Origin: Candidatus Kapaibacterium sp.
Lineage (GTDB): Bacteria > Bacteroidota > Ignavibacteria > Kapaibacteriales > WFXC01
Direction of reading: 5' to 3'
Length of the DNA: 64,000 nucleotides
Assembly: GCA_027082775.1 (NCBI GenBank)
Contig: JALWUI010000063.1
Span: 4,975 to 68,974 of the forward strand
The translations under genes were made by a program, and so were the position numbers. The notes beneath the pieces are model-generated. The model had not been told where the DNA came from. It saw only the letters and a program-made list of their open reading frames with translations, and searched no databases. Each line of letters begins with the position of its first letter. Position 1 is the stretch's first letter. Below, in pieces: positions 37,309-58,800 of the stretch.

Positions 37309-37372
37309 TACAAATTTACGCCGCCCGTTGCTTCAATGCAATAGCATTTTTTCCAAAATGTCACTGGAAGAA
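37309..37372 (-). promoter_or_regulatory. Conserved upstream motif plus Bacteroidetes-type -33/-7 promoter (copy 1) for the HAF-metzincin gene
   Basis: Gene-sense sequence ...CCAGTGACATTTTGGAAAAAATGCTATTGCATTGAAGCAACGGGCGGCGTAAATTTG. TTG and TAAATTTG (TAnnTTTG) are spaced 20 nt apart; the upstream block recurs at 58760 and 51710. Confidence 0.5.
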
Positions 37373-37395
37373 GTTCCTTTTAGCGACATATGCCG

Positions 37396-37925
37396 CCAAT
37401 CGCTACTGGGTCTCCATCGGTGAAAGAATCTTTCGGCACGTCACTCGCGGGAAACACGCATTTCAGCCCGCATTTAGCGGGAGCGCACGCTTCAGCGTGC
37501 ATTCACTGGGAACGTACCTTTAGGGTGCATTTACTGGGAACGCACCCTTTAGGGTGCATTCTTGCCGGCTAAAGCCGGCGCTCCCGGTAAGGCACTCCCT
37601 GTTACTGGGAGCGCACCCTTTAGGGTGCATTCTTGCCGGCTGAAGCCGGTGCTCCCAGTGGGGTTTACTGGGGGCATACGCTTCAGCGTACGTTGCCCTC
37701 ACCCTACCCCTTTCCCAGAGGAAGAGGAAATTTCCTGTATCTGTAGGGGCGACCGGCTGGTCGCCCATCGGGCGAAACATTGCTTCGCCCCTACATATCA
37801 CGCTGGGAGCGCACCCTTTAGGGTGCATGCCGACTGAAGTCGGCGCTCCTGGGTGGGTTGCGACAGGGGAGCGCACGCTTCAGCGTACACCATCTGTGGT
37901 AGGACAACCCTCCGGGTTGTGCAAG
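37396..37925. repeat. Hairpin-array repeat cluster E (largest)
   Basis: Units GCACGCTTCAGCGTGC, GCACCCTTTAGGGTGC (several copies), CCGGCTAAAGCCGG, CCGACTGAAGTCGG, GCGACCGGCTGGTCGC, GGGCGAAACATTGCTTCGCCC and GGACAACCCTCCGGGTTGT. Confidence 0.75.
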
Positions 37926-38014
37926 CTAAGCCAGCGGTTTGCTCTACTATTTATATCCTGTCGTCGAAAGCTGGTGCTCCGGTTTACTCTTCTTCCTGAG
38001 CACAGAAACTCCGA

Positions 38015-39613
38015 CTACTCTGCCACCAGCTCGTGCCATTGCAGAAATGTCAGCGCTGGCATTCGCCCGCTACCTTCTTCCCACTCCTGCTGCCGTTTCT
38101 GCTGGTAGTATTCCGTGATCGACATACCTGCTGCTTTCGCTTCCAGCCAGGTGAGAATATCGAATTCGATCGATTCCTGCTCCAGAGCTTCTGAAAGGAT
38201 GCGATGGATGCGCTGGTAAAACGGCAGCGTTGCCGAAAGGTGCGATGCGGCAACAGTGCTGGATATTCGCTGCAGGATGCGTCGCATCACCCCTACCACG
38301 GGGACAAATGAAGGGTACTGCTGCACAAAGCGGTAGAGGCGTCCTAAAGCACGCTCTGTTGCTTCAAAGTCGCGCTGTTCCCAGGCGATGATGCTGAGAA
38401 GGAGTCGCACGAGAAAACCGATTTGTTGCAACAGCCGTTGTGAGGTGCGATCGTATGCGGCTTCCAGGTACTGACGGGCAAGGTCATACTCTTGCAGCCA
38501 GAAAGCAATGCAGCCAAGGTGGTACAAAGCCGCTTTGTAAAAGTAGGGATATCGCTGGCAATACTGTTGCAGAATCTGTTCGATTATCTGCCGATGGGCA
38601 AAGATTTCTTCAAACTGTCCTAATTCCAGCGCCAGATACAACACCACGTTCAGATACAGCATCTCCACCTCGTCCCTGATGATGTCGTTTTCTTGAGCAG
38701 CACCGTTTTCCTGTTGCCAAAGCTGTTTGATGGTTTCAAATCGTCGCTCGATGGTGTGGGCATCGCGGGCGGCGGCAGCACTGATAATCTGGTTATGCAG
38801 CGCATTGAAATAGGCTAACGGGTACCACTGCGGTCGCTGGGAATCGTACTGAAAATACTGGATCAACTGTTCATAGCATTCTACTGCCCGTGCTGGCTGA
38901 CCACTAATAGCCCATAGCAGTGCCTCGGTGTTCCAGCGCAAAAAGGGGATGGGGAAAGGATCGGTCATATAAGCAGGAATGCACTGAAGCTGATCGATCA
39001 CTGGCTGAATAAGCATCTTGCCCTTAGCACTGGAAGCTCGAACGTTGCCCTCAACGTAGCGGGTGTTCCACCGGGAGTGAATATCCAGTAATTGCACGAA
39101 CCGCTGGGTCTGGTCCAGCGCTTCCTGCAACTGTTTCAGGTGCTGAGAAAGCTCCTCCTGGCTGAACAACTGAAAATTCCGATGACTGTGATACTCAAGT
39201 TGCAACACCGCTGCCGCCAGTTTTTGCACAGGATCACCAGCGATGTCGGCAGTGCGGTAGGTTTTTTGTGCGGCTTTTATAGCATCGCTATCCTGTCCTC
39301 CTACAAAAGCGAAGCGGGAGAGAACCAGGTTGAACAGTCCAGCACTCTGCTTGTCCTGTTTCATTAAAACGTACGTTCCAATCTGCAACACTCTGGTATA
39401 CACCTTGTGCCGCAGCGCTCGAAGATCTGTCTGAATTCCCTGCTGCTGGAGGGCAGAGCGCAACTGTTGATCGCCCCATTCTGGATGCTGTTCCAGAAGC
39501 TCCAGAAAGACCTGCTCTGCTTCCGTGAGTTGAATCCGTATCCCTTGCTTGATTTGCTGCCACAGGTCTGAAGGAAGTGTGCGCAATAATTGATTCAGTT
39601 TGTAATGTGCCAT
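38015..39613 (-). CDS. Hypothetical all-alpha (TPR-like) cytoplasmic protein, paralog 1 of a two-member family in this window
   Basis: No signal peptide; helical composition. It is roughly 65-70% identical across its full length to the ORF at 51807..53387 (MAHYKLNQLLRTLP... vs MADHKLDQLLRALP...). Confidence 0.6.
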   Translation of the reverse strand: MAHYKLNQLLRTLPSDLWQQIKQGIRIQLTEAEQVFLELLEQHPEWGDQQLRSALQQQGIQTDLRALRHKVYTRVLQIGTYVLMKQDKQSAGLFNLVLSRFAFVGGQDSDAIKAAQKTYRTADIAGDPVQKLAAAVLQLEYHSHRNFQLFSQEELSQHLKQLQEALDQTQRFVQLLDIHSRWNTRYVEGNVRASSAKGKMLIQPVIDQLQCIPAYMTDPFPIPFLRWNTEALLWAISGQPARAVECYEQLIQYFQYDSQRPQWYPLAYFNALHNQIISAAAARDAHTIERRFETIKQLWQQENGAAQENDIIRDEVEMLYLNVVLYLALELGQFEEIFAHRQIIEQILQQYCQRYPYFYKAALYHLGCIAFWLQEYDLARQYLEAAYDRTSQRLLQQIGFLVRLLLSIIAWEQRDFEATERALGRLYRFVQQYPSFVPVVGVMRRILQRISSTVAASHLSATLPFYQRIHRILSEALEQESIEFDILTWLEAKAAGMSITEYYQQKRQQEWEEGSGRMPALTFLQWHELVAE

Positions 39614-39875
39614 CGTGCGTTCAGCTTGCTTGAACGTCCCGGCATAAATTTAGCAAATTGGATGCAAAGCGCTGTTGCCTTTGCCACTTTGCGAGAGTCT
39701 CAGGCTTCAATCTTTTGGGGACACTATTCAACGCAAAGACAGCCCCTTTCCTGACTGCTAGCACTTCTGCAAACATTGTTCAGTGTGGAGGGAACGAGCA
39801 GCGCACGGCACCGAGTCAATGGGCGTGTTCTCGCAGTGGTATACATGCCCGATCTTCGCGTACCAATGTTTGTTG

Positions 39876-40571
39876 TCAATCGTTATGCTGGCGCAGTGCT
39901 TCCAGTACCTGCTGGATGTGGCGACAAACGGTTGTCGCAGAGCAGCGATGGAGGCGAGCAATTTCTTCTAAGGTCCATCCCTGAGCCCTGCGGTACACCA
40001 TATCCCAGACGTCCGGACCGAACCGCCGGCGTATCCACTGCTCAAGACGCTCCAGTTGCAGTCGGGCATCCACTGTCATTTCGGGAGAATGCAAGTCGAC
40101 CGGTTCCTGAGAGAGTGCAGACACTTTCTGCGCCCGTCTGCGATTCTCCGAGGTGAGAGAGCGAACGGCGACTTTTTCCGCATAGCGCCAGAGCGCTCCG
40201 GGAATATGCCGAATCTTCCGGGGTGATTTCTCCAGAAGGACTGCAAGCGCTTCTTGTACCGCATCCTCTCGATCCTCTGGAGGAAAAGCAGCAAAGTGGT
40301 GGTCCAGAAAGTGCTGGAGCGTGTGCTGCAAGATGCGAAGCGCAACCGGGAACTGTAAGAGGTCAGGCGGGTGATAACTCGACACCTGGCATTGCTCTGC
40401 AACTTTCGGGAGGAGGGCATCAAAGTGGAAGAACGCATCTACCACCTCCGTTATGGACTCTTCCTCCAGTAGTTGACCCAGGACCTGCGTTATTTGATGC
40501 GGTGCGATATCTGGCAGGGCATACTGGAACAGTGGTAAGAGTTGCTGGACAATGGTCGTCTCCTCACTCAT
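39876..40571 (-). CDS. Sigma-70 family (ECF-like) RNA polymerase sigma factor
   Basis: Region-2-like EDAVQEALAVLLEK..ALWRYAEKVAVRSL and region-4 HTH GWTLEEIARLHRCSATTVCRHIQQVLEAL. Start assigned to MSEETT, with a TTTG-N15-TTAAATTAG promoter-like element just upstream. Confidence 0.6.
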   Translation of the reverse strand: MSEETTIVQQLLPLFQYALPDIAPHQITQVLGQLLEEESITEVVDAFFHFDALLPKVAEQCQVSSYHPPDLLQFPVALRILQHTLQHFLDHHFAAFPPEDREDAVQEALAVLLEKSPRKIRHIPGALWRYAEKVAVRSLTSENRRRAQKVSALSQEPVDLHSPEMTVDARLQLERLEQWIRRRFGPDVWDMVYRRAQGWTLEEIARLHRCSATTVCRHIQQVLEALRQHND

Positions 40572-40823
40572 AGCGATATACCCCCATCTCAGCGACTCTT
40601 TGATCGGTTCTAATTTAAGCATTTCCCTGCAAAATCGGCATCGATGCCCATTATGCGATGCCTCAGCCACTGAGGAACCGGTTTTTTTTCTCTTTGCAGA
40701 TTTCTCGATCACCGTCAGCACTTTCACTGCTGGCTCCAGCGATTGGACGTGAAAAATTTTGCGCCGAAAATCCTCTATAGAGTTTGGGAAGGTAATCAGT
40801 CGCAAAACTACGATAGATAGGCT

Positions 40824-41285: not shown

Positions 41286-41318
41286 GAGCCGTTTCACAGA
41301 TAAAGGAAGCTCGAAAAG

Positions 41319-42659: not shown

Positions 42660-42819
42660 CAGTGCCGCCGGGGGCACAATACCCCCGGTGGTGGAATTCA
42701 GTCCCCGGCGTTTCCGGACATTTCGCGCAGGCTTGCACCACAGATAAGGAATAAGCGCCTACGCCAGTCGGCATCACCTCCGGCTCCACGCGCATACTTA
42801 CCAAAAACCGGCTATGTTC

Positions 42820-43310
42820 CATCGACCGGGAGCGCACACTCTTAGGTGTGTATCGTTGATCCTTATGCCGACTGAAGTCGGCGCTCCCAGTCGGCGCTCC
42901 CGGTAAGCGATCCCAACTGCTGGGAGCGCACGCTCTTAGGCGTGCATTGCCCTCACCCTAACCCTCTCCCAGCGGGAGCGGGAATTTTTGCATCTGTAGG
43001 GAGCGACTCGGCTGGTCGCCATCACCCGCACCCGTAGGGGCGACCGGCCGGTCGCCCCTACTACACATTTACGCCAGTGCCTCCTTTATCATCTGCCGGC
43101 TGAACCCGGCGCTCCCAGTTCAGTGCTTCCACCTACTGGGAGCGCACACTCTTAGGTGTGCATCTACTGGGGAGCGCACCCTTCAGCGTGCATTCACTGG
43201 GAGCGCACCCTTTAGGGTGCATCTTTGCCGGCTAAAGCCGGCGCTCCCAGAGGAGCGCACGCTTCAGCGTGCACCATCTCTGTGGTAGGACAACCCTCCG
43301 GGTTGTCCAA
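42820..43310. repeat. Hairpin-array repeat cluster F
   Basis: Units GCACACTCTTAGGTGTGT/C (3 copies), CCGACTGAAGTCGG, CTCACCCTAACCC..GGGAGCGGG, GGCGACCGGCCGGTCGCC, GCACCCTTTAGGGTGC and GGACAACCCTCCGGGTTGTCC. Confidence 0.75.
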
Positions 43311-43548: not shown

Positions 43549-44937
43549 TCAACGCACCACAATCACCTTCACTGTTTTGTTCAATTCCCCAGCACGGATG
43601 TGGCACAGGTAGATGCCTTCAGGTATCCCCAGCAACGCCCATCGCACCTGATGTTCGCCGGGTGGCAGCATCCTATCGACCAGCGTTGCTACGTGGTATC
43701 CCAGCAGGTTGTAGATTTCCAGCGCTACGGGTGCAGGCTTCGGCAGCGAAAAACCGATGTGGATGTCAAGGCTGGCGGGAGGGTGCACAACGTTGACCTT
43801 CCACGGAATATCTCCATCATCGCTCAGGTCCGTGGACGATTGCGCATCCAGCCAGAAGGCTTCTCTCCAGCGACCTGCTATGGCATTGAATCCTACGCCC
43901 ACGATGTAGCGGCCATCTGGCAGGATGGCGCGTGCTTCCTTGAGAAAGGAATCGCCGGCGAGCAGGGTGCTGTAGGTCTGGCTGAGGTTTTCCGCTATGC
44001 CTGCCACGGCATCCCACCGAACAGCGCGGACCTCGCCACTATCATTCTCTGCCCAGCCGACGACATACCGTCCGTCCGACGAAACGCCCACAGCCCAACT
44101 CGAACCGCCGCCCAGCGTACCGAGGTCCTGGGTCAGACCAGTTTCCATATCCCACCGAACAGCGTGGACGTCACCGCTGTCATTCTCTGCCCAGCCAACC
44201 ACAAATCGCCCGTCGGCTGAGATGCCAAACGCATAGCTTTCGTTCCCTCCTAAGGCTCCAAGCTCCTGAATTTCCCCGCTCTGCATATCCCATCGCACAG
44301 CGCGCCATTGCCCAGCAGCATTTTCTGCCCAGCCGACAACAAATCGTCCATCGGCGGAGATCCCGTAGGCAATGCTCTCACTGCCGCCCGGCGTTCCCAG
44401 TTCTTCCATCTGTCCAGACTGCATATCCCACCGTACGGCACGCCATTGCCCAGCAGCATTTTCCGCCCAGCCGACGATGAAGCGTCCATCGGCGGCAATG
44501 CTATACGCCCGACTCCAGCCACCACCCAGATGCCCCAGATCCTGCACCTGGCCGGTTAGCGCATCCCACCACGCAGCGCGCCGCCAATTGCTGTCGTTTT
44601 CTGCCCAGCCGACGACATATCGACCATCGGCGGAAATCCCGAACGCGACACTCTCCTTTCCTCCAAGGGTTCCCAGATCCTGCACATGTCCAGTCAGCAC
44701 ATCCCACCGCACAGCTCGCCGCCAGCTACTATCGTTTTCCGCCCAGCCGACAACGAAACGCCCATCGGCAGAGATCCCATACGCCCAGCTTTTACTTCCG
44801 CCCAGCGTCCCCAGCCAGCGCAGATGCTGCCCGTTGCCGGTGCTAACAGCAAGGAGCAGAACGAAGCCTGCTGAATACACCCATCGACGCATTGCTTCTC
44901 TCCTGATCGTTCCTGAAAGTACGAGGGAAATTAACAC
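43549..44937 (-). CDS. HAF-repeat protein (seven repeats) with T9SS C-terminal sorting domain
   Basis: Seven tandem units (RRAVRWDvlTG.vQDLGTLGG..S.A.GISADGRfVVGWAEN) followed by a CTD (GIYLCHIRAGELNKTVKVIVVR). The start may be the internal MRRWVYS (44892). Confidence 0.7.
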   Translation of the reverse strand: MLISLVLSGTIRREAMRRWVYSAGFVLLLAVSTGNGQHLRWLGTLGGSKSWAYGISADGRFVVGWAENDSSWRRAVRWDVLTGHVQDLGTLGGKESVAFGISADGRYVVGWAENDSNWRRAAWWDALTGQVQDLGHLGGGWSRAYSIAADGRFIVGWAENAAGQWRAVRWDMQSGQMEELGTPGGSESIAYGISADGRFVVGWAENAAGQWRAVRWDMQSGEIQELGALGGNESYAFGISADGRFVVGWAENDSGDVHAVRWDMETGLTQDLGTLGGGSSWAVGVSSDGRYVVGWAENDSGEVRAVRWDAVAGIAENLSQTYSTLLAGDSFLKEARAILPDGRYIVGVGFNAIAGRWREAFWLDAQSSTDLSDDGDIPWKVNVVHPPASLDIHIGFSLPKPAPVALEIYNLLGYHVATLVDRMLPPGEHQVRWALLGIPEGIYLCHIRAGELNKTVKVIVVR

Positions 44938-47956: not shown

Positions 47957-48017
47957 CGTACAGCTCCTTTTATTTTTTCCAACACTGTTTTCAGACAGGA
48001 TATTGAAGACTGCCGGG

Positions 48018-48447: not shown

Positions 48448-51375
48448 CTACCGGCGCACGAAAAACGGCTGGACTACCGTTGTGGTTCCATACCGGAACT
48501 GGCACACATACATCCCATTGCTCAGCATCGGGAGTACTGGCTGGAAGCAGCGCTGTCTTATGTCCACGTGCTGTTTCCAGAGCAATCGCATTTGTGCATC
48601 GTAGATCGATACGGTCGCTGTGCCGCTGCTTTGCGGTAGCACACTCCAGCAGATGGTAAAGCGCCCATCGTTGACTGAAGGATTGATAGAAAGGTCAAAA
48701 GCTGGGTAATCTCGATGCTCTGCCACTTCTGCTGGCGTCTCTGCGCGCTGAAGCGGAACATACCACAGCCCCGGATGGTACGTTGTGGCGGGATCATCCC
48801 ACTGCGCCTTTGCTGGGAAAAGTTCTACGACACAGGAAGAATCAGTAACAGGCACCAGCACATCATTTGCTTTGCCATCCAATCCGATCAGATGAATCTG
48901 ATCATCATTCGGTGTCCAGCCAGCAATCGCCGCTCGACGGCGTATGCGCCTATCCCAGGACAACTGGTAGATCCGGGTTTGGTAGCTCCGATCGTTGTTT
49001 TCCATTGTATCGATACGGATCAGACACCAGAGTCCCGAAGCAGTCAGCGCCTGCGGCACAATCCACCACTCTGCTTCTACTGGTTCAGGAAAACTCCATT
49101 GCCGGATGACACGCCGGGTTGTGAGATCATAAGCCGTTATGGTGTGGATCTTTTCATTTGGAGCCAGACCGACAATTTCCGTCCAGACCAGGGTGTTGCC
49201 GAAAAGGCGAGCGCGGTGAATCGCCGCCGAAGGAGCTTGACTAACAATTCGCTGCTCTGTCCGGGATCGGTAATCAAAGACAACCAGCGTGTCCGGCTTG
49301 TCAACTCGCCCCGTATCCGGTAAGCGCCATACTACCCGACCTTTTTGATGGTCGAGAATATCGTAGAACCGGGCATCAGCGATGGGATGGTTCCATTCTG
49401 CTAACACGGTATAGGGATGATTGGGTCCCCATACAACTATTTGCACCGAATCACTGCCCCGGTAACTTCGTCGCCACGCCATCACGCTGCCATCCAGATG
49501 GAAATCCTCATTGGTCCAGAGCGTAAAGGTGGGGCGAAGGGCAAGGGATTGAATCGATCGGGTATCGACATCGCCGACATAGAGCGTATCTCTATACTCA
49601 TCGGTCCACCAGATTCGCCGGTTGGCAACGCCGAGCAAGTGGAGGCGGGAGGGGAAGGCGGTATGCGGTTCCCACTGCCACCCATACCGGAGCCGGTCAT
49701 CTTCATAGTTGATGAAAGCAGCAGTCGAATCCTGTACCCATCCTGGCAGTTGCTTCACCTGGTGGTCGCTGACAACCCACGCGATACCGGTGTTACCAGC
49801 AACGACATCGCCAAGTGTCAGCGCTCGTTGCGGTGGGTTGATACTGTAAGCATTGACCGTATCATAGAGCACGCCGGCAAACAACAGCGATTGCACCTTC
49901 CAGTTCCGAAGGTCCGCTCGGTAAAGCAGACAGAAAATGTCATCACCCCGCGTTGGAACAACGCTGGCGAACCGTGCATTCCCCCACAAAAGAGCTACAT
50001 TCTGTGCATTGCTGCCGAACAATGCGCCATTCCCCAGAAAATGTGCTGAATCCAGACTTCGGCTCTGGAGTTTACAATCGTACAGTTTCTTTGTGCCAAG
50101 ATTGACCACAACATAGCTACACATCACATCCGATGGAGTCAGTGAGGGTTCGGTCAACGCAATGCCAATGACTTTTTTCGGTACGGTGTGCAACACCTGC
50201 TTTACCACCACCGAATCCTGGCGTTCCAGAAAACGGAGAATTCGGGCAGCAGCACTGAAGTCCACGTATGCAGCTTCGTATTCTGACAAAAGCGCGATGT
50301 CCGTTGAGTCAAACTCAGTTTCGTAAGCCGAAAATGATTTGTCAGCAAACGGTCGGCGCTTGAGCTGATACTGAAATCCCCATCGGGGATCCACATTCCG
50401 ATCTTGTACCCAGAGGGCGATCCAGAAATCCCGGACCAGCTCAACGAACGAGCGATCGGCACCCACCTGCCGGAGTGCAGAATCAATCCCGGCTCTGCCG
50501 GATAGCGGATTCTGCACAAGGTATCGTAAGAGTGTATCGCCGTACTGTTCCAGACAGTACTTGTAGAACAGCGCTGCTCGCCCGTAGGTTATTTCCGCAT
50601 CTTCTCTTGAAAAATCGGCAAACTGGAGAATTCCTCTTCGCTTGTAAGCTGGAAGCGCTGTCACGAAAGAGTTCACAAACTCATCCCACTGAAAGCCACA
50701 AATATATTCTCCCATCTGCGCCCGTCCTTCTAAGCTGAAGCGTTCTTCTTGCGGATCATATCGATGTTCGATCAGGTGAACCAGTTCGTGGGCAGCCGTG
50801 CCTGCGATTTCAGCAACGGTTCCGGTGCCAAAATTTCGCCAGTTCAGGTAGAGAATATTGCCCTTATTGCTTTTGTCAGTGTCCTTTTGATCCATCGGGC
50901 TGAACCATCCACGCGCAGCGTAGTTGACGTCTGTAACAAGATAGTGGACTGTATCAGCATTGCCCTGTGGGAATTGATTGGGTACAGTCCCAACCCATTG
51001 GTGCAGGAGCGTTCCAATTCCCAGATTGGGATTTTTTGATCCGTCAGGAGTTTGATTCGCCAGGAAATTGAGCAACGTGTCGACTTTCGGTTGAACAGCC
51101 GCATTGCCGGAGAGTGCTGTGTCGATCCATAGCTTGAAAGGGAAGCCACTGTACCCTGTCCGGAAAAGCTGAAAAGTGCGCCGCTGACGGAAGGATTGGG
51201 TAGTATCCACAGGATCCTGAACATCCACGTAGAAATTCCTCAGGGGACCATCCAAAACTTCCTGAATAAACTCAACCGGTTGCTGATATGCCTTCGAAAA
51301 GAAGGCAGGTTCTTGAGCAAAGCTGCTGATCGCGATCAGCAGTGCCAGTGTAATAACACCTTTAGGGATTCCCAT
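48448..51375 (-). CDS. 975-aa secreted putative zinc metalloprotease (HExxH) with T9SS C-terminal sorting domain
   Basis: Signal peptide MGIPKGVITLALLIAISSFAQEP; motif TAAHELVHLIEH; C-terminal CTD (MYVCQFRYGTTTVVQPFFVRR). Confidence 0.55.
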   Translation of the reverse strand: MGIPKGVITLALLIAISSFAQEPAFFSKAYQQPVEFIQEVLDGPLRNFYVDVQDPVDTTQSFRQRRTFQLFRTGYSGFPFKLWIDTALSGNAAVQPKVDTLLNFLANQTPDGSKNPNLGIGTLLHQWVGTVPNQFPQGNADTVHYLVTDVNYAARGWFSPMDQKDTDKSNKGNILYLNWRNFGTGTVAEIAGTAAHELVHLIEHRYDPQEERFSLEGRAQMGEYICGFQWDEFVNSFVTALPAYKRRGILQFADFSREDAEITYGRAALFYKYCLEQYGDTLLRYLVQNPLSGRAGIDSALRQVGADRSFVELVRDFWIALWVQDRNVDPRWGFQYQLKRRPFADKSFSAYETEFDSTDIALLSEYEAAYVDFSAAARILRFLERQDSVVVKQVLHTVPKKVIGIALTEPSLTPSDVMCSYVVVNLGTKKLYDCKLQSRSLDSAHFLGNGALFGSNAQNVALLWGNARFASVVPTRGDDIFCLLYRADLRNWKVQSLLFAGVLYDTVNAYSINPPQRALTLGDVVAGNTGIAWVVSDHQVKQLPGWVQDSTAAFINYEDDRLRYGWQWEPHTAFPSRLHLLGVANRRIWWTDEYRDTLYVGDVDTRSIQSLALRPTFTLWTNEDFHLDGSVMAWRRSYRGSDSVQIVVWGPNHPYTVLAEWNHPIADARFYDILDHQKGRVVWRLPDTGRVDKPDTLVVFDYRSRTEQRIVSQAPSAAIHRARLFGNTLVWTEIVGLAPNEKIHTITAYDLTTRRVIRQWSFPEPVEAEWWIVPQALTASGLWCLIRIDTMENNDRSYQTRIYQLSWDRRIRRRAAIAGWTPNDDQIHLIGLDGKANDVLVPVTDSSCVVELFPAKAQWDDPATTYHPGLWYVPLQRAETPAEVAEHRDYPAFDLSINPSVNDGRFTICWSVLPQSSGTATVSIYDAQMRLLWKQHVDIRQRCFQPVLPMLSNGMYVCQFRYGTTTVVQPFFVRR

Positions 51376-51694
51376 CTTTCATCCCTCCTGTTCTGTTGCA
51401 TTGCCCCATATTCAGTGCCCGGACTCGAAGGGCTCTTTTTTATCGTTTGTTCATTCCCCGAATTCTCTTTCAGGTCTTGACGCCTAACTCTTCCAGCATC
51501 AGAAATGCTGACCGGTGAATCTACCGCATTTTCGGATCCGAGCAAATTTACGTCGAAATTCCTTCCCAGCAAGGGAAAATTTTTGCAAATGTCCCGCAGG
51601 GGACAGGTGTTGATGATGATTCCTGCCGGGAAGCAAAGGAACGCTGGGTTTGAGGGTTCCCATAATTGACATTCCCCAAGTGTGGACACAATAC

Positions 51695-51762
51695 TGCAAA
51701 TTCACGCTACTTGCTGCCCGAATGCAATAGTGCTTTTCCCAACAAATGTTATTGTTTCAGCA
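51695..51762 (-). promoter_or_regulatory. Conserved upstream motif plus -33/-7-like promoter (copy 3), about 320 nt upstream of the HExxH protein gene
   Basis: Gene-sense sequence ...AACATTTGTTGGGAAAAGCACTATTGCATTCGGGCAGCAAGTAGCGTGAATTTG. A weaker related block lies at about 51545-51600. Confidence 0.4.
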
Positions 51763-51806: not shown

Positions 51807-53387
51807 CTACTGCGGCACCAGCTCGTGCCATTGAAGGAATTTCAATGCTGGCATTCGTCCGCTGCTTTCTTTCCACTGCTGCTGCCGCTTCTGTTGATAA
51901 TACTCCGTGATTGATATCCCCTGCACCTTGGCTTCCAGCCAGGTAACCAGGTCAAACTCGATCGATTCTCGTGCCAAAGCCTCTGAAAAGATGCGATAGA
52001 TGCGCTGGTAGAACGGCTGCTCCTCCGGCAGTCGATGTGCTGCAAAGGTGCTCGGCATCCGCTCTACTATACGTCGCACTGCACGTACCACCGGAACAAA
52101 AGCTGGATACTGCCGGACGAACCGGCGAAGACGCTCCAGTAACCGTTCCAACGCCTCAATGTCCTGCTGCTCCCAGGCAATGATGCATAAAAGGAGTCGG
52201 ACCACAAAGCCAATTTGCTGCAACAGTCGTTGCGAGGTATGATCGTAAGCGGCTTCCAGATACTGGCGGGCAAGGTCGTATTCCTGTAACCAGAAAGCGA
52301 TGCAGCCCAGGTGGTATAAAGCCACTTTGTAAAAATATGGATACTGTCGGCGATAGTGCTGCAGTATCTTTTCAACGTGCGACCGGTCATTGAAAATGTT
52401 GTCGAAGCTCCCTAATTCCAGAGCTAAATACAGGACGATGTTCAGATACAACATATCCATTTCGTTTTTGATTGCAGCATCCGATTGCTGCCGGAGCCGT
52501 ATAATTTCCGCAAAGCACCGCTCGACGATCGCTGCGTTTCGGGCTGCTGTTGCAGCAACGACCTGATTATGCAATGCACTGAAATATGCCGGTAAATAAA
52601 GGTGTTTTCGACTTTCGGCGATCTGGAAATACCGAAGAAGCTGTTCATAGCATTGCACTGCTTTGTCCGGTTGTCCCTGTATGTTCCACAGCAGCGCTTC
52701 GGTGTTCCACCGCAGAAATGGGATGGGAAACGGGTCTGCTTCATAAGCAGGAATCTTCTGGAGTTGCTCGATAACCATAGGAGCAACTGTTGCAGCTTCG
52801 GAACTGGAAATCCGAATTTCTCCTTCAACGTACCACGAATACCATCGAGCATTTAACAGAAGCAATTGCACATATCGTTGAGTCTGGTCCAGGGCAGTCT
52901 GCAAGTGCTCGAAACTCTTACGTAATTCCTCGTGATCCAGCAGTTGGAGGTTTCGATGCAGATGGTACTCAAGCTGTAGCGCCATTGCTGCCAGCTTTTG
53001 AATAGGATCACCAGCGGTATCGGCTGAGCGATAGGTTTTTGCCACAGCCTTTAAAGCATCGCTATCCTGCCTCCACTCAAAAGCAAAGCGAGAAAGAACC
53101 AGATCAAACAATATAGTACTTTGTTTGTCCTGTTGCATTAGCACGTATGCTCCGATCTGCAATACCTTGGTGTACACTTTATGCCGCAGTGCTCGAAGAT
53201 CTGTCTGAATTCCTTGCTGCTGGAGCGCAGAGCGCAACTGTTGATCGTCCCATTCTGGGTACTGCTCCAGAAGACTCAGAAAAGACTTTTCCACCTCCGT
53301 CAGTTGAATCCGTATTCCCTGCTTGATCCGCCTCCGCCACACTGGCGGCAAGGCGCGCAGGAGCTGATCCAGTTTGTGATCTGCCAT
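51807..53387 (-). CDS. Hypothetical all-alpha cytoplasmic protein, paralog 2
   Basis: Full-length similarity to 38015..39613. Start assigned to MADHKLDQLL by alignment with its paralog. A conserved element, CATAAA(T)TTAGCRAATTG, lies 35-45 nt upstream of both paralogs. Confidence 0.6.
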   Translation of the reverse strand: MADHKLDQLLRALPPVWRRRIKQGIRIQLTEVEKSFLSLLEQYPEWDDQQLRSALQQQGIQTDLRALRHKVYTKVLQIGAYVLMQQDKQSTILFDLVLSRFAFEWRQDSDALKAVAKTYRSADTAGDPIQKLAAMALQLEYHLHRNLQLLDHEELRKSFEHLQTALDQTQRYVQLLLLNARWYSWYVEGEIRISSSEAATVAPMVIEQLQKIPAYEADPFPIPFLRWNTEALLWNIQGQPDKAVQCYEQLLRYFQIAESRKHLYLPAYFSALHNQVVAATAARNAAIVERCFAEIIRLRQQSDAAIKNEMDMLYLNIVLYLALELGSFDNIFNDRSHVEKILQHYRRQYPYFYKVALYHLGCIAFWLQEYDLARQYLEAAYDHTSQRLLQQIGFVVRLLLCIIAWEQQDIEALERLLERLRRFVRQYPAFVPVVRAVRRIVERMPSTFAAHRLPEEQPFYQRIYRIFSEALARESIEFDLVTWLEAKVQGISITEYYQQKRQQQWKESSGRMPALKFLQWHELVPQ

Positions 53388-54012: not shown

Positions 54013-56823
54013 TTATCGAGCGACCACAAACGGGTATGTTACAACATCGCGTTCCAGATGTACCACCACCATATAGATTCCCGATGGTAGTGCCGGGATA
54101 CTGAGCGTGTAGCCCCCTGCTTTGTGGAATCCTTCAGCAAGAGCGGCAACAGTGCGGCCCATCAGATCGACGATGGCTATCCGGATCGGCTGTGATGCCG
54201 GTAAGTGGTAATGGAGTCGAGCACCTTCAACAACGGGAAGCGGTTCTATCCAGAGTTTCAGGGGCACCGAGCGCCTGGGCTGCATTCCCGTTGTTTCTTT
54301 GATGGATTCCGAAAGTGCAAACCGAATTTCCCGACTATTGGTACCAAGGTTGGGAATACTGTCGCCATCGGTATCAAGGACATATACCCGAACTTTTTCC
54401 AGCCCAGCAGTATCGTTGCTTTGTTCCCGATCGTGGAGATATCCTATCCACGGAATGCCTAAGGTCTGACCACATTCGAAGACACGCACAGCGTGCCCGC
54501 CTCGGGGATGTCCGGCCGAATCATACGAAAACACGATCTCTACGTCTTCGCCTCGCCGGATTTCATCGCAAATCCATTGCCAGCTTACCACGGCTCCGCT
54601 ATCATAAGAGGTAATGCCGCTACTGGTGAAGTTTCCTGGCGGCAGCGCCTGTCCCTGCGTTGAGTCTCCATATCCTCTTCCCTGATGCTTGTGAACTAAT
54701 GCATCCCGCAACCCACTCCGTGCTAAGTAGGCAAACTTCCCACGGAGCATAGGCTGGAACCATACCCCATAACCTGAATCTCGTCGAGGCGCGATACGGC
54801 GGGCCAAACTATCCAGCCATCCAACGATACTGACTGTGTCACCTCGTAGCCCGGGCCGATGAGCGTGTGGAATATTGAGTTCGTATCGGTTCTTTAGATA
54901 CTGCAAGCTGTTAGCAACCGCCATTGGAAAGCACTGATTCTTTGCTGCTTGAACATTTGTGTCGTTCGGTTGCGTAACTTTCCAGGAAAGTCCCGATGGA
55001 TCGAAGATGATCATATTCGGAGACGGTGGGACACCAATATGCGAGACCGTTCCTTCCCCCGCTCCTTCTGCATTCCAGACAACCCGATCCACAGGAAATG
55101 CCAATCGAGGTCCATCACCAAACGATGGTACAGGCTTGGGAGTAAAAATCAAGTAGCCTGACAGCGTGTCTACTTTTTGTCCATCCTCAGCTGCCAGAGC
55201 AAAGTACGTCACTACCTCCGTATCCGTGGAATCAACCCAGAGGTTTTGGACCACCCACCCAAGGTCCGTGAAAAGGTTGAGATATCCTCCCGAAAGATCA
55301 GCCGCTCCCGTCAGGGTAGGTCGATCAACACTGAGTCGTCCCCACGCCGAGAAAGGTTCCTCAATGCCGGAGAAGGAGAAATGCACCTGCTGGATCTCAA
55401 CGCCCTGTCCCGGTTCAACACGGTTCGGCGACGTGACGCTGAAGGACAGCGAGTCACTCCAGGATCCCCATGCGCCCGCTTTGTCTTCTGCCCGCACACG
55501 CCACCACCATTGTCCCGATGAGAGAGAAGCGATCCGAGGCACAGTAATGCTGTCAGGTTCACCACTGGCTACCCAGTCGGTCTGATACGTTCGCACATCC
55601 GTACCCTGCCACACTGCTATTTCGTAGCGTACGGAGTCACCGTTGGGATCTTCTCCGCGTACCACAAAGGTTGGCGTTGGTCCTTGCTGTGCAGCACTAT
55701 CGGGAGACAGCATCGCTGGAATCGACGGAGGAAAATTGCTGATGCTAAGCCGATACGCCTCTATTCTCTGCGATGTGCCATTGTATCCCTGTCCCACAAT
55801 CACGGTGCCGTCGGGGGTAATGGCAGTTGGAGTGCCAAGTAGCGAACTATCTTGTAGCAGCGCTGCATAGGTGTAGGAAAGATCCTCAAATCCTGTTTGT
55901 GCCGTCCAGCGGAATATTCTCTCTTCGCCGGAAGAAGCTATCCATCGCCCAAGGATTGTGGGATCGGAAGATCCCATCGAGGCAGTAGTGTTCGAAACAA
56001 CGAGAGCTTCGCTGGGTTTGATGTCATCGGGGAGAGGAAGCACATATACCTCTGCTGGTGAGTGCCGGAGATCCCATACTGCTGCTAAGGGGGTCAGGGA
56101 AGTGTCAGCCACAGCCCCAACGACGAACGTTCCATCTGGCGAAATTGCTCGCGCAAATGCATAGAGATAGTTTGCAGGAACAGGAAGTTGTTCCACAACA
56201 TAGCTATCTCCTTTCCGGCGCCATAAGAGAACGATGAACGCTCCTTTGTCTGTTCGGAGAATGCCGAGAATTTCATCACCATTTGCTGAAACATCTACAG
56301 CCTCAGCTTCACCATCTTTCGGTAAAGGTAGTTCCGAGAACTCTCCCATAGAATTCCACCAGCAAGCATGAGAGATACCGACAGAATCTACCCAGCTACC
56401 GACTATGACGCGCCCGTTTTGCGAGATGCTTCGGGCAATGGCATACCACGTTCCTTCTGGAACAGAAAGGGCAATGATTGTGTCAGCGCGGCGGAGAAAT
56501 GGTTGAAGATCATCGCCTTCCTCCGGAACGCCAATGCCTACCACCGTTTCACCATCTCCCGCGATATCGTACCCTTGAAGCTGGATCCACGAAGTGTTAA
56601 TTGGAGTATGTGACTGAGTACTGCTTTCCCACAGCGTTGTGAGAACCTGCATCAGTGTTGTATCGTGTGACTGCACCAGCACTTTGCTGCCGTCAGGAGT
56701 CAGAGCCAGAGCTCGGCTGGAAGCATATCCGGAAGAGGTTCCCAGCCAATCCAGATTTTGCGCGGCGAGAGAAGTTGTTGTCAAAAGTATCAATAGCCAT
56801 TTGGGGACAAGGTGCTGTTTCAT
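54013..56823 (-). CDS. 936-aa secreted protein with HAF-like and FN3-like modules and T9SS C-terminal sorting domain
   Basis: Signal peptide; degenerate ..S..G..vVG repeats; an FN3-like module similar to one in the HAF-metzincin protein (PNGDSVRYEIAVW...WWWRVRAEDKAGAWGSWSD); CTD (GIYMVVVHLERDVVTYPFVVAR). Confidence 0.55.
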   Translation of the reverse strand: MKQHLVPKWLLILLTTTSLAAQNLDWLGTSSGYASSRALALTPDGSKVLVQSHDTTLMQVLTTLWESSTQSHTPINTSWIQLQGYDIAGDGETVVGIGVPEEGDDLQPFLRRADTIIALSVPEGTWYAIARSISQNGRVIVGSWVDSVGISHACWWNSMGEFSELPLPKDGEAEAVDVSANGDEILGILRTDKGAFIVLLWRRKGDSYVVEQLPVPANYLYAFARAISPDGTFVVGAVADTSLTPLAAVWDLRHSPAEVYVLPLPDDIKPSEALVVSNTTASMGSSDPTILGRWIASSGEERIFRWTAQTGFEDLSYTYAALLQDSSLLGTPTAITPDGTVIVGQGYNGTSQRIEAYRLSISNFPPSIPAMLSPDSAAQQGPTPTFVVRGEDPNGDSVRYEIAVWQGTDVRTYQTDWVASGEPDSITVPRIASLSSGQWWWRVRAEDKAGAWGSWSDSLSFSVTSPNRVEPGQGVEIQQVHFSFSGIEEPFSAWGRLSVDRPTLTGAADLSGGYLNLFTDLGWVVQNLWVDSTDTEVVTYFALAAEDGQKVDTLSGYLIFTPKPVPSFGDGPRLAFPVDRVVWNAEGAGEGTVSHIGVPPSPNMIIFDPSGLSWKVTQPNDTNVQAAKNQCFPMAVANSLQYLKNRYELNIPHAHRPGLRGDTVSIVGWLDSLARRIAPRRDSGYGVWFQPMLRGKFAYLARSGLRDALVHKHQGRGYGDSTQGQALPPGNFTSSGITSYDSGAVVSWQWICDEIRRGEDVEIVFSYDSAGHPRGGHAVRVFECGQTLGIPWIGYLHDREQSNDTAGLEKVRVYVLDTDGDSIPNLGTNSREIRFALSESIKETTGMQPRRSVPLKLWIEPLPVVEGARLHYHLPASQPIRIAIVDLMGRTVAALAEGFHKAGGYTLSIPALPSGIYMVVVHLERDVVTYPFVVAR

Positions 56824-57021
56824 CGCTTGCTCCTTCCGAATGGTTTCACATCAGGAATAAACAAATTTCCACTGGTGATCGGACAATTCTTCTGGTCATC
56901 GCTAACTTTGCTGCTGATTGAAGACGACCAATTGTCAGCACTTTTTCCCATCGGGTGAGAGTCCTGCCGTTTCTTCGTTCTTTCCATTGGAAGTTCGCAC
57001 ACGGATAGCACGAGCGTTTCT

Positions 57022-58668
57022 TCAGCACGGCTGTCCATCCAGTCCCTGTTGTCCCTGTTGAACATTGACTGCGTTTCCCGGATTGCCACCCTGACCGAGA
57101 CGACCATTGGGTGGAGGTGCGCCCCATCCACCATTTCCTCCATTACCGGATAGCCCATCAGTATTGCCTGCATTGCCAATTCCGTCGCCATTGCCAGGCA
57201 GACCGGGATATGCTTCTGCATCTCCTCCTTTACCACCATCACCACCCTGAAACGGTGGCTGGCAACACCATCCACCATCGCCACCATCACCACCATAGGC
57301 GGTTGCATTTCCGCCGTTCCCCCCGGTACTGTTTCCAACACGCTTTAGAGGAGCCGGGACGGCGACGACGAAATCTCCGCCCTTGCCTCCTCTGGCTATA
57401 GCCTTTCCGCCGTCGCCACCGTGGCAGGGACCGGAACTACAATTATCATCTTTTCCCTTCCCGCCGTCACCGCCGAACGCTATAGCATTTCCTCCCTGTC
57501 CCCCAACTGCATTCACACCTATGGTGATTTTGTCGAGCCCAATGATATTTCCCCAGTACCTTACTTGCCAATTGACGGATCCACCATTACCGCCAATAGC
57601 CGTGGCATTACATCCGTTCTCCCCAGGACATCCTGCCTTACCGTCCAATGCCTCTGCGTGGGCATTTCCTCCCTTGCCTCCATTGCCAAGATTGAATCTT
57701 AAGTTGTCGTGGACGACAATTGCTTGGTTTAAGCCAAAGAAATCAACTTCGACTCTGAATAAGCCAGGTTTCCCTCCTTTGCCGCCTCTTGCTCGCGCAG
57801 GACAGCAGTCAACAGCAGTTGCATTTCCTCCGGGACCTCCAGATCCCAGATTGAAGGTTACATCACCGTAAAACTCAATGCGGTTGGTGGCGCGGAGAAC
57901 TACAGATCCACCTCTTCCCCCTCTACCTCCAATAGCATTGCATTTACTTTTATCTTTTCCGCGTTTGCCGTGAGGGAGATCATAAGTCGTTGATTTTCTT
58001 GCTCGACTGCCAACATTGAGCTGGCCCCAGATATATACCCATATGCTCCGCCCACTGCTGTCTTTACGAAACTTAATAGGGGGTAGCCAGACAGGTGGTG
58101 GAAAAACAAAAACTTTGTGTGCCTTGATAGGGGTACTCATTACAGGATTTCGGCGGGAGTCTCCAAACGGGCTTTTCCCCACGCCAATTCCCGGACCATA
58201 GTGCTCTATTTGCTGGATGTCCATTTCCAACTGCTCCGGCGTTGGTACCAATTCGGGAGAACTTACCAGGATGAAATTTCCTCCCGGCTCCACCATCGCC
58301 TCTGGTCCACATTCCAGTCCTCCCGGTACGATTAGCACTAAATCTCCGCCACTACGGATCCGACCGTTCAGGGTCAGTTTCCCCGTGCAGTGAATGGTCA
58401 GGGGACCTGTAGCCGTTACCATTGCCCCTTCCGCTATCGTTAAGTTTCCTGCCCGGTACACTTCTGCTGCCTGGACTGTTTCCGTAATAATGCGGTCGGG
58501 AAATTCCTTGCTTTTCCGGATTTCAGACCCTTCCTGCTGCCCACCAGAGCGTGTGATTGTCCCGTCAGGTTCAGTGAGGAGCGTCGAGGGTTTCTCCTGA
58601 CAGCCGGATACCATCCAGACCAGAAGAAAGCTCAAGAAGATCATTCCTGCTGTGATAAATTTTCTCAT
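57022..58668 (-). CDS. Glycine-rich repeat lipoprotein (GGxGGxAxA/GGDGG units, beta-roll-like periodicity)
   Basis: Lipobox LVWMVSGC. The C-terminal ~300 aa are dominated by GGNGGNATAYGGDGGDGG, GGDGGKGGDAEAY and GGQGGNAIAFGGDGGKGKDD repeats. Confidence 0.55.
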   Translation of the reverse strand: MRKFITAGMIFLSFLLVWMVSGCQEKPSTLLTEPDGTITRSGGQQEGSEIRKSKEFPDRIITETVQAAEVYRAGNLTIAEGAMVTATGPLTIHCTGKLTLNGRIRSGGDLVLIVPGGLECGPEAMVEPGGNFILVSSPELVPTPEQLEMDIQQIEHYGPGIGVGKSPFGDSRRNPVMSTPIKAHKVFVFPPPVWLPPIKFRKDSSGRSIWVYIWGQLNVGSRARKSTTYDLPHGKRGKDKSKCNAIGGRGGRGGSVVLRATNRIEFYGDVTFNLGSGGPGGNATAVDCCPARARGGKGGKPGLFRVEVDFFGLNQAIVVHDNLRFNLGNGGKGGNAHAEALDGKAGCPGENGCNATAIGGNGGSVNWQVRYWGNIIGLDKITIGVNAVGGQGGNAIAFGGDGGKGKDDNCSSGPCHGGDGGKAIARGGKGGDFVVAVPAPLKRVGNSTGGNGGNATAYGGDGGDGGWCCQPPFQGGDGGKGGDAEAYPGLPGNGDGIGNAGNTDGLSGNGGNGGWGAPPPNGRLGQGGNPGNAVNVQQGQQGLDGQPC

Positions 58669-58737
58669 TGCTCAGCTCCTTTTGATTGAACACCTTAACT
58701 GAACAACAGTCTCTCCTTATTGCTGAATTCAACTTAC

Positions 58738-58800
58738 TGCAAATTTAAGCTGCTCGCTACCCGAATGCAAGAGCATTTTTTCCAAAATGTCACTGGAGAA
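58738..58800 (-). promoter_or_regulatory. Conserved upstream motif plus Bacteroidetes-type -33/-7 promoter (copy 2) for the Gly-rich lipoprotein gene
   Basis: Gene-sense sequence TTCTCCAGTGACATTTTGGAAAAAATGCTCTTGCATTCGGGTAGCGAGCAGCTTAAATTTG, with TTG-N20-TAAATTTG. Confidence 0.5.

Follow-up and report, generated by a model that had tools for sequence, protein, structure and literature searches.

The question raised by this locus is why genes for secreted proteins that are unrelated to one another should begin with nearly the same promoter DNA. The window, that is the whole 64,000-nt stretch of Candidatus Kapaibacterium sp. DNA analysed here, contains a promoter block of about 65 bases before two secreted-protein genes, plus one decayed third copy. 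All genes concerned lie on the minus strand, and quoted sequences are given in gene sense. The copies (s1, s2 and s3), a weakly related promoter (s4) and their parts are the following.

37300-37368, minus strand: s1, block before the metzincin gene; its 33-nt stretch is shared exactly with s3
37344..37367, minus strand: 24-nt upstream element CCAGTGACATTTTGGAAAAAATGC of s1, predicted at about -61 to -38; exact 22-mer match
37336..37341, minus strand: TTGCAT of s1, containing the -33 TTG, 20 nt before the -7 box; from the sequence
37311..37318, minus strand: -7 box TAAATTTG (TAnnTTTG) of s1; predicted transcription start near 37306
58727-58797, minus strand: s3, block before the 548-aa lipoprotein gene; its 33-nt stretch is shared exactly with s1
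58773..58796, minus strand: 24-nt upstream element of s3; 22-mer match and profile; orthologues in L018 and L095-L099
58765..58770, minus strand: TTGCAT of s3 (-33 TTG); from sequence and alignment
58740..58747, minus strand: -7 box TAAATTTG of s3; predicted transcription start near 58735
51697..51755, minus strand: s2, degenerate copy, 56 nt past the TPR-2 stop codon and upstream of the HExxH gene
51543-51598, minus strand: s4, GGGACATTTGCAAAAATTTTCCCTTGCTGG, 16 nt, then TAAATTTG, between s2 and the HExxH gene

The s1 and s3 blocks contain the same 33-nt stretch, CCAGTGACATTTTGGAAAAAATGCTnTTGCATT, followed by 16 nt and TAAATTTG; counted from TTGCAT, 17 nt precede the box (37311-37318 in s1, 58740-58747 in s3). 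The 22-mer GTGACATTTTGGAAAAAATGCT occurs exactly twice in the window, at 37343-37364(-) and 58772-58793(-), with none expected in 100 dinucleotide shuffles even when 3 mismatches are allowed. A repeat search recovered a 63-nt family at 37306-37368, 58735-58797 (84% identity) and 51692-51754 (62%), and a profile built from the canonical copies gave the three sites E=1.8e-23, 6.1e-22 and 1.8e-9. The preliminary description had placed the motif at three genes, of which two carry it intact. The s2 copy reads ACAATAACATTTGTTGGGAAAAGCACTATTGCATTC and lacks the string originally quoted, with a 2-nt insertion and an element identity of 17/26; its sequence is identical in an independent assembly (L106). 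In this genome two copies remain intact, s1 and s3, while s2 is decaying. The s4 promoter is recovered only faintly (nhmmer E=0.35; PWM 9.9 bits).

Bacteroidota-type promoters have been reported to follow TTG-N17-23-TANNTTTG (bioRxiv 10.1101/172254), with the -7 box at -12 to -5 (PMC9723704). The gap between TTG and the -7 box is N20 in s1, s2 and s3 and N19 in s4, all within 17-23. Since TTG-N20-TAnnTTTG lies in the published range, the geometry of s1 and s3 fits a Bacteroidota/Chlorobi-type sigma-A promoter, from which a transcription start can be predicted. The -33/-7 shape claimed earlier holds for these two copies (TTG-N20-TAAATTTG), but not for s2, where the box, TGAATTTG at 51697-51704, no longer has its second-position A and departs from TAnnTTTG. 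The block shares TTG-N20-TAAATTTG with sigma-A promoters of this type, and the box is also found at other genes of the window; what it adds is a strictly conserved 24-nt element upstream of -33. The other TAAATTTG-box promoters of the window (5147+, 17630+, 62349-) are without it.

The genes that the copies may drive, and the cassette to which one of them belongs, are listed below.

34491..37265, minus strand: metzincin-like secreted protease gene, 924 aa, downstream of s1; signal peptide, T9SS C-terminal domain
34288..37424, no strand assigned: cassette of about 3.1 kb comprising the s1 promoter and the metzincin gene, with REP-like hairpin repeats on both sides
57022..58668, minus strand: Gly-rich lipoprotein gene, 548 aa, lipobox VSGC, downstream of s3
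54013..56823, minus strand: secreted-protein gene, 936 aa, downstream of the 548-aa gene; signal peptide, weak Por_Secre_tail
48448..51375, minus strand: HExxH secreted-protein gene, 975 aa, downstream of s2 and s4

The three proteins encoded downstream of s1, s2 and s3 are unrelated to one another. A signal peptide is present in every protein encoded by the putatively driven genes, and a T9SS C-terminal domain in most of them; the Pfam matches of the metzincin gene are all weak (Reprolysin_3, Peptidase_M66, Por_Secre_tail). The 936-aa gene is possibly on the same transcript as the 548-aa gene. Neither the profile nor the PWM detected the motif at the other T9SS cargo genes of the window (BNR, 462-aa, 1244-aa). 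A partial copy had been described at 47960-47990, at the BNR gene, where only the 11-mer TTGGAAAAAAT is present, beside an AAGGAG ribosome-binding site and the ATG. This 11-mer reaches E=55 with the profile, has no -33/-7 downstream and corresponds to TTG--AAAAAT in the orthologous sequence of relatives, and it is treated as chance. With two intact copies only, the second copy decayed and the BNR copy put down to chance, the suggested co-regulation of the whole island is not supported.

Conservation is unevenly spread over the block. The upstream element is identical at 24/24 positions in s1, s3 and the metzincin copy of species B, and in the three pairwise comparisons of paralogous copies the values are 24/24 for the element, 8/8 for the -7 box, 8-9/17 for the spacer and 1-4/8 for the flanks. 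The TTG is invariant in 8/8 aligned copies; species-B s3 and the distant relative L100 have a one-T-shorter -7 variant, TAnnTTGY. Compared with the others, the L100 element is still recognisable (17/24), whereas its spacer is at random level (2-6/17), and conservation by column is highest in the T and A runs, the distant L100 copy included. The extended conservation beyond the core promoter noted in the preliminary description is borne out over about 24 nt (24/24 against 8-9/17 in the spacer), a contrast that a functional site upstream of the promoter would be expected to show. As element and -7 box are identical, the spacer about 50% identical and the flanks random, the pattern points to selection rather than recent duplication.

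Which protein might act at the element is suggested by two neighbouring genes.

38015..39613, minus strand: TPR-1, RusR/BT2802-like, 532 aa, candidate activator; NF058569, hhalign and AF2
51807..53387, minus strand: TPR-2, candidate activator sharing 68% amino-acid identity with its paralogue TPR-1; directly upstream of s2

TPR-1 is an all-helical TPR protein (AF2 model pLDDT 83). Against NCBIfam NF058569 (BT2802 family) the TPR proteins align end to end at E=8.8e-11 and 41.5 bits (protein 7-498 against profile 8-497 of 502 positions), a score below the curated cut-off of 550 bits that makes them distant homologues and not members. A comparison by hhalign with BT2802-like proteins gave a probability of 99.9% and E=1.2e-31 over 492 columns, as expected of full-length homology, and bridging homologues match NF058569 at 1e-29 to 1e-55. 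No known DNA-binding domain was detected in the TPR proteins; Pfam, PDB sequence/profile and Foldseek searches returned TPR-type matches only. The best helix-turn-helix family, HTH_32, is below significance (E=0.06-0.13), and a LuxR/sigma-4-like helix pattern at N-terminal residues 31-84 is an unconfirmed impression.

A TPR gene lies immediately upstream of the block and co-oriented with it at s1, at s2, at the species-B metzincin copy, in L101 and in L100. The TPR-1 stop codon is 650 nt upstream of s1, the gap being filled with REP repeats, and the block follows TPR-2 after 56 nt at s2 in this genome, after 53 nt in species B (L008, L095-L099) and after 110 nt in L101. In L100 it lies about 140 nt past a TPR homologue of 41% identity. 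There, the best PWM match falls exactly at the TPR-downstream intergenic site, with 18.7 bits vs 8.4 for the next match in 21.6 kb on both strands, a score reached by 0/500 shuffles; no further relatives of the L100 regulator were found in the protein collection. Directly upstream of s3 there is no TPR gene; the place is taken by a DUF4397 gene and non-coding DNA of 800 nt, and a search there for a TPR pseudogene remnant found none. The motif was absent downstream of the TPR-1 orthologues in L092-L094 and at the more distant RusR-like loci L102, L104 and L105, and the PWM found no autoregulatory copies above background upstream of the TPR genes. The motif carriers amount to four or five lineages, all close relatives except L100. 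Scanned with a degenerate pattern, 185,579 species-representative genomes gave two Kapaibacterium matches only, both orthologous to sites of the window, and about 180 kb of related loci yielded no additional strong PWM matches. A site at L093:6539 resembles the motif weakly (14 bits) but has no -33/-7 at the right spacing and was rejected, as was a metagenome scan with TGACATTTTGGAAAAAATG, in which 0 of 72 matches were related and many were ordinary TTGACA-N17-TATAAT promoters or coding sequence.

The usual position of a lineage-specific TPR gene directly upstream of the block, in the window, in close relatives and in one distant relative, makes its product a concrete candidate activator. The explanation proposed here, which we consider to have an even chance of being correct, is an activator-dependent promoter re-employed before unrelated T9SS cargo genes, with a RusR-like TPR protein as the putative factor. 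A complete sigma-A promoter (TTG at about -35 to -33 and, 20 nt further on, TAAATTTG at -12 to -5) would be fused to the 24-bp element CCAGTGACATTTTGGAAAAAATGC (about -61 to -38), which would serve as cis-target of the RusR/BT2802-like TPR proteins encoded beside it (TPR-1, TPR-2). The TPR protein would bind the GTGACATTTT / AAAAAATGC element immediately before the -33 box, or be recruited to it, and would activate the adjacent T9SS cargo genes, the signal presumably being sensed by the TPR body. The block has been reused ahead of unrelated genes: those for the metzincin, for the 548-aa lipoprotein, which the 936-aa gene follows, and, in a distant relative, for a giant beta-helix protein. We infer all three of positive regulation, a transcription start at the block and the TPR protein as factor. 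The proposal is weakened by the failure to detect a DNA-binding domain, by the lack of a TPR gene at s3, by the motif-free TPR-1 orthologues and distant RusR-like loci, and by the small number of independent observations that four or five mostly closely related lineages provide. A bolder proposal, that CCAGTGACATTTTGGAAAAAATGC is the first operator of the RusR/BT2802 superfamily and that regulator gene, operator and promoter form a portable unit set before genes for various T9SS-secreted proteases and surface proteins in Kapabacteria, is tentative and more apt to fail than to hold.

The proposed mode would parallel RusR activating the neighbouring rus operon in Bacteroides. The rusR gene (BT2802) lies immediately upstream of the operon under its control and is needed for growth on ribose; about 10% induction remains upon its deletion, and DNA binding by RusR is predicted (bioRxiv 10.1101/574913). 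Its regulon is the adjacent PUL only (PMC12596196). Although RusR-type proteins are required to activate the Bacteroides ribose-utilisation locus, the literature found describes neither the DNA recognised, as an operator, nor a demonstration of DNA binding. The rus locus of B. thetaiotaomicron resembles the present one in having an all-helical TPR-like protein of about 500 aa encoded immediately upstream of, and co-oriented with, its proposed targets, in its full-length homology to the TPR proteins found here and in its local regulon. The homology is very distant, however (41.5 bits against the 550 cut-off), the host is a Kapabacterium, the targets are T9SS-secreted proteases and surface proteins instead of a sugar-utilisation locus, and the motif has no counterpart among described RusR operators, none of which was found in the literature.

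The T4-N2-A6 run at about -52 to -41 makes a factor-independent UP element the main rival to an activator-dependent promoter, and we regard this rival as rather unlikely while giving it more credit than any other alternative. The alpha C-terminal domains would contact the T-tract and the A-tract, a strong constitutive promoter would have been copied, and the TPR neighbour would be incidental. UP elements are A/T-rich, span -59 to -38 and have a TTTTnnAAAA core or an A-tract proximal subsite. The position of this subsite in E. coli was reportedly defined by Estrem et al. in 1998/1999, and we take -46 to -41, the position of the A6 tract, to be the same. The likeness to E. coli UP elements such as that of rrnB P1 presumably extends to an A/T-tract directly upstream of -35/-33, with A6 at the proximal subsite. 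In the block, TTTT-GG-AAAAAA at about -52 to -41 fits the core, by a numbering that rests on an assumed start site, and conservation peaks in the T and A runs even in L100. With TAAATTTG placed at -12 to -5 (PMC9723704), the element would span -58 to -38 and its A6 tract would lie at -46 to -41. Against this, G/C is found at 9/24 conserved positions of the element, and conservation is no less strict in the G/C-containing flanks (CCAGTGAC, TGC) than in the A/T runs (24/24), which an UP element would not require. The motif is also extremely rare and confined to the neighbourhood of RusR-like genes, being tied to a regulator gene and not to highly expressed housekeeping genes as in E. coli, and other TAAATTTG-box promoters of the window do without it. 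The preliminary description had named a common activator or an UP-like site; the first now has a candidate in the RusR-like TPR protein encoded usually directly upstream, but sequence alone cannot separate the two.

Shared ancestry only, in which a promoter segment was recently duplicated or gene-converted and the upstream 24 nt have no special regulatory role, is improbable. Common descent as such is shown by the spacer identity of about 50%. Putative mobile promoters have been defined as stretches of 50 nt or more that are at least 80% identical and precede non-homologous genes in one genome (Matus-Garcia, Nijveen and van Passel 2012; PMC3575422), and s1 and s3 qualify, with 84% over 63 nt and unrelated downstream proteins. 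The metzincin cassette has, moreover, demonstrably moved together with its promoter: by blastn synteny breakpoints it is missing at this site in L092/L093, and in species B it is found after TPR-2; the repeats around it belong to families D2/D4/D8. As relatives have one copy after TPR-2 before the metzincin gene, while here cassette and promoter sit elsewhere, s1, s2 and s3 are, on this comparison, not three independent observations. Neutral decay, however, would hit element and spacer equally, which disagrees with 24/24 vs 8-9/17 and with an element still at 17/24 in L100 beside a random spacer (2-6/17). What sets these copies apart from mobile promoters in general is that element and boxes are kept while the spacer diverges, and that a regulator gene is linked to them; both favour a specific regulatory reading.

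A different factor might bind the element, for example a sigma-70 region-4/ECF-like protein or a regulator that controls T9SS cargo globally; the TPR protein would then be a co-factor or unrelated. The local candidate would be the following.

39876-40805: sigma-70 region-4/ECF-like ORF, just upstream of TPR-1; weak HTH_23, Sigma70_r4 and ECF matches

This ORF has a recognisable DNA-binding fold, whereas none was detected in the TPR proteins, and a cargo regulator would suit a set of genes that all encode signal-peptide proteins, mostly with T9SS C-terminal domains. The sigma-like gene, however, accompanies TPR-1 only (L092, L093) and is absent beside the motif in species B, L100 and L101; the -7 box is canonical sigma-A and not an ECF-type -10, and other T9SS cargo genes of the window are without the motif. 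We consider such a factor to be quite unlikely.

REP-like repeats, defined as arrays in either orientation of a G+C-rich dyad unit (GGGAGCGCAC...GTGCA), occur within about 110 nt of s1 and flank the metzincin cassette, but that the motif is itself part of such a hairpin family or of a miniature mobile element of intergenic regions is very improbable, as it has no similarity to these units, is never inside the arrays, forms no stable structure (fold z-scores -0.4 to +1.1) and is always in gene sense directly upstream of genes. The motif proved separate from the hairpin repeats, to which the preliminary description had allowed it might belong. An RNA element or terminator was rejected, since neither an Rfam family nor significant RNA structure was found. 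By eye, a sigma-54 reading failed on the wrong GG..GC spacing, and an ECF reading on a variable spacer without a conserved ECF-type -10.

The candidate activator also recalls the RRNPP regulators of Firmicutes (PlcR, NprR, Rap), which have TPR bodies and often control adjacent secreted-protease genes. In a Foldseek search of the PDB, Rap and NprR gave the highest TM-scores for the TPR protein (0.51-0.56), a generic TPR fold similarity. RRNPP proteins differ, however, in phylum and lack sequence homology to the TPR proteins found here, in which there is no match to an N-terminal XRE-type helix-turn-helix/HTH_3 and beside which no signalling-peptide gene is evident; the likeness is an analogy only.

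The activator-dependent promoter, as proposed, is an ordinary kind of gene switch with a previously undescribed DNA target. The RusR/BT2802 superfamily comprises widespread, mechanistically uncharacterised TPR regulators of the FCB group, and a short, sharply bounded and conserved element between a RusR-like gene and its putative promoter is a directly testable operator candidate. If true, the proposal would give a first view of secreted-protease control in an uncultured Kapabacterium and would widen the role of the RusR/BT2802 family from sugar scavenging to secreted-protein control. The copies also appear to be a clean case of promoter reuse, in which similarity is explained by selection and not by recency.

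A last feature lies on the far side of the s3 copy.

58893..58904, minus strand: second GGTGACATTTTG, 110 nt upstream of s3

The sequence GTGACATTT has 3 occurrences only in the window, all in gene sense. The distal GGTGACATTTTG copy upstream of s3 is kept in L018 and L096, and it is a possible distal half-site.

The block, a 24-nt upstream element fused to a -33/-7 promoter, recurs in the window on the minus strand. The copies before the metzincin gene (s1) and before the gene of a 548-aa lipoprotein (s3) read, in gene sense, CCAGTGACATTTTGGAAAAAATGCT(A/C)TTGCATT, 16 nt, TAAATTTG(T/C)AGTA. For GTGACATTTTGGAAAAAATGCT the window has exactly two occurrences (37343-37364 and 58772-58793), with none expected by chance even with three mismatches. 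A repeat finder delimited a 63-nt family of three members in the window, at 37306-37368, 58735-58797 (84% identity) and 51692-51754 (62%), which a profile made from canonical copies scored with E-values of 1.8e-23, 6.1e-22 and 1.8e-9. The recurrence at three genes reported in the preliminary description thus holds for the good copies s1 and s3, but the third copy, s2, is degenerate, with a 2-nt insertion, several substitutions in its upstream part and a -7 box with G instead of A at position 2.

51697-51755, minus strand: s2, ACAATAACATTTGTTGGGAAAAGCACTATTGCATTC...TGAATTTGCAGTA
51543-51598, minus strand: s4, weakly related promoter-like site with TAAATTTG, between s2 and the HExxH gene

In the best-supported reading, s1 and s3 are intact and s2 is decaying. 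The supposed partial copy at 47960-47990, before the BNR gene, is regarded as chance, since it consists of the 11-mer TTGGAAAAAAT alone, lacks a -33/-7 promoter downstream, has a profile E-value of 55 and is not kept in relatives, which carry TTG--AAAAAT at this position. The 11-mer sits right beside the BNR gene's ribosome-binding site and start codon (ATG).

The proposed -33/-7 promoter shape is supported. The distance from TTG to TAAATTTG is 20 nt, and TTG-N20-TAAATTTG falls within the range TTG-N17-23-TANNTTTG quoted for RpoD promoters of Flavobacterium and Chlorobaculum (bioRxiv 10.1101/172254). Numbered from the TAnnTTTG box of F. psychrophilum, located at -12 to -5 (PMC9723704), the TTG falls at -35 to -33, with the additional element CCAGTGACATTTTGGAAAAAATGC covering about -61 to -38. 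Boxes of the TAAATTTG type are found without the upstream element at other window genes (5147+, 17630+, 62349-); therefore, the -7 box is generic for the organism, unlike the element. In two copies from relatives (L096:4551-4619 and L100:11727-11785), the -7 box lacks one T (TAAATTGC and TAGTTTGC), giving TAnnTTGY, known from Flavobacterium psychrophilum as variant 'SM5'. In the s3 copy of species B (loci L095-L099), the element's T and A runs have 1-nt deletions, on which five independent assemblies agree. Clear Shine-Dalgarno sequences (AAGGAG or AGGAGG, 7-9 nt 5' of the start codon) are present at 37266-37285, 58669-58690, 51376-51395 and 47957-47975. Such sequences are largely absent from Bacteroidia and Flavobacteriia.

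When 185,579 species-representative genomes were scanned with a degenerate pattern, only two relevant matches came up, both in Kapaibacterium: the s3 orthologue in a locus 97% identical (L018) and a canonical motif after a TPR gene (L008). The source organism is related to metagenome-assembled genomes of Candidatus Kapaibacterium. For gene orders, contigs of TPR homologues were retrieved and then aligned to the window. The order in species B is DUF4397, motif, 548-aa, 936-aa, TPR-2, motif, metzincin, 979-aa HExxH and BNR. The window has this order minus the metzincin cassette after TPR-2 (51807-53387, minus strand), where s2 and s4 are found (51398-51734). The 3.1-kb cassette (about 34288-37424, including s1) follows TPR-1 (38015-39613, minus strand), with REP-like repeats on both sides, and its window site is empty in L092 and L093/L094. 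Across s2 the window agrees fully with an independent assembly (L106), and the arrangement is therefore genuine. The two gene orders indicate that the three copies represent two ancestral sites plus a relocation, the promoter moving with its gene. The island proteins have signal peptides and, in most, C-terminal sorting domains for type IX secretion (T9SS). The metzincin gene (36424-37178) and a 462-aa gene (43549-44937; repeats 44038-44814) have in common 138-nt periodic coding repeats of the HAF type ('DGRYVVGWA'), showing that island proteins share domains.

The motif lies 56 nt past the TPR-2 stop codon at s2, 53 nt past it in species B, and 110 nt past a TPR gene in L101, where a 548-aa-like gene downstream is presumably driven by it. 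At s1, 650 nt of REP repeats separate TPR-1 from the motif. The most informative case is L100, whose TPR homologue is merely 41% identical. About 140 nt past its stop codon, the intergenic region contains GTAACATTTTAGAAAAATAGGGCTTGTTT, 17 nt and TAGTTTGCAG, upstream of a gene for a secreted beta-helix/CARDB protein of >5,600 aa. This site has the top position weight matrix score on both strands of the 21.6-kb locus (18.7 bits; next 8.4), reached by 0 of 500 shuffles; identity is 17/24 in the element and at random level in the spacer. One exception to the linkage is the TPR-1 orthologues in L092-L094, downstream of which no motif was found. A weak motif-like site in L093 (6539-6571, CCAGAGATATTTTGGAGAAACAGC; 14 bits), upstream of a PEGA-domain gene missing from the window, is probably due to chance, as no -33/-7 promoter stands at the right spacing. 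The other exception is s3, which follows a DUF4397 gene and an 800-nt non-coding stretch in which no TPR remnant was found. These 800 nt contain direct repeats of 65-67-nt period (58958-58989 / 59025-59056, 32 nt identical; 59165-59194 / 59230-59259, 30 nt, 87%), apparently with a different copy number in species B (L096). A second GGTGACATTTTG (58893-58950 region, minus strand), 110 nt 5' of s3, is conserved in L018 and L096 and preceded by an A/T-rich stretch with two AAATTTTCAAAA; this second copy may serve as a distal half-site of an operator, or as a bend.

Only five close homologues of the TPR protein exist among 5.8 billion clusters. Pfam recognizes one TPR and nothing else. The NCBIfam model NF058569 ('BT2802 family ribose utilization protein') gives an end-to-end alignment (E=8.8e-11; 41.5 bits, far under the 550-bit cut-off). 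An exhaustive HMMER search gave about twenty remote homologues of ~500 aa, which match NF058569 at 1e-29 to 1e-55, and profile-profile comparison joins both groups with 99.9% probability over 492 columns. BT2802 is RusR, encoded directly upstream of the rus locus and needed for growth on ribose, with about 10% induction left after deletion (bioRxiv 10.1101/574913); its regulon is the adjacent locus only (PMC12596196). No RusR operator was found described in these papers. The AlphaFold model from a deeper alignment is confident and all-helical (pLDDT 83, pTM 0.78); Foldseek retrieved generic TPR proteins only, with top TM-scores for Rap and NprR (0.51-0.56), and no helix-turn-helix family matched the N-terminus significantly. 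Two remote RusR-like genes on unrelated contigs (L104:1258-2694, L105:1416-3920) each have a divergent BNR/Sortilin-type protein beside them, with a T9SS sorting domain in L105, echoing the island BNR gene (45434-47956).

For function, where every statement is one that we infer, the evidence best supports a sigma-A promoter that depends on an activator. The RusR-like protein encoded nearby would act on the 24-bp upstream element as its target, and the block would have been reused before unrelated T9SS cargo genes. Chief among the rival readings is an UP element acting without any factor, since T4-N2-A6, at about -52 to -41, matches the core and the proximal subsite of UP elements in E. coli. 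Three points speak against this rival: the G/C flanks are strictly conserved, the motif is extremely rare, and it is linked to the regulator gene. The two readings are compatible with each other. In kind, local activators, operators joined to core promoters and the reuse of promoters (PMC3575422) are well known; new are this particular motif, its link with a distant branch of the RusR family, itself barely characterised, and the setting among T9SS proteases.

Neutral shared ancestry of the blocks is less likely. The proteins encoded downstream of s1, s2 and s3 are mutually unrelated, and no flank alignment was obtained among these sites.

Identity in three paralogous pairs (s1/s3, s1/species-B metzincin, s3/species-B metzincin) whose flanks and downstream genes lack similarity
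24-nt upstream element: 24/24 in all three pairs
Linker plus TTGCAT: 6-7/8
17-nt spacer: 8-9/17
-7 box: 8/8
Flanks: 1-4/8 and 3-6/13

The leftover spacer similarity shows common ancestry of the blocks, hence promoter reuse, and the contrast between element and spacer indicates that selection on the element is no weaker than that on the -7 box.

A different factor, for example the product of the sigma-70 region-4-like ORF 39876-40805 (minus strand), is also less likely. This ORF, directly 5' of TPR-1 and also preceding its orthologues in L092 and L093, has weak C-terminal matches to HTH_23, Sigma70_r4 and ECF-sigma. Its product may act with the TPR protein as a sigma-like partner.

Origin from the G+C-rich REP-like hairpin units, abundant across the window, is likewise less likely, and the motif is distinct from them: profile and weight-matrix searches of the window gave no similarity to the units and zero copies within their arrays. 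The motif had no Rfam match, its RNA folding energies equal those of shuffles (z-scores -0.4 to +1.1), and no common structure was found. Many intergenic regions are filled by these arrays, with dense families of units GGGAGCGCACGCTTCAGCGTGCA and TGCCGGCTAAAGCCGGCGCTCCCAG.

REP-like arrays in the window
6757-7002
11792-11996
29838-30088
34233-34323
37476-37890
42817-43282
48028-48266
61566-61820

Two of them flank the relocated metzincin cassette, which suggests that such arrays mediate rearrangements.
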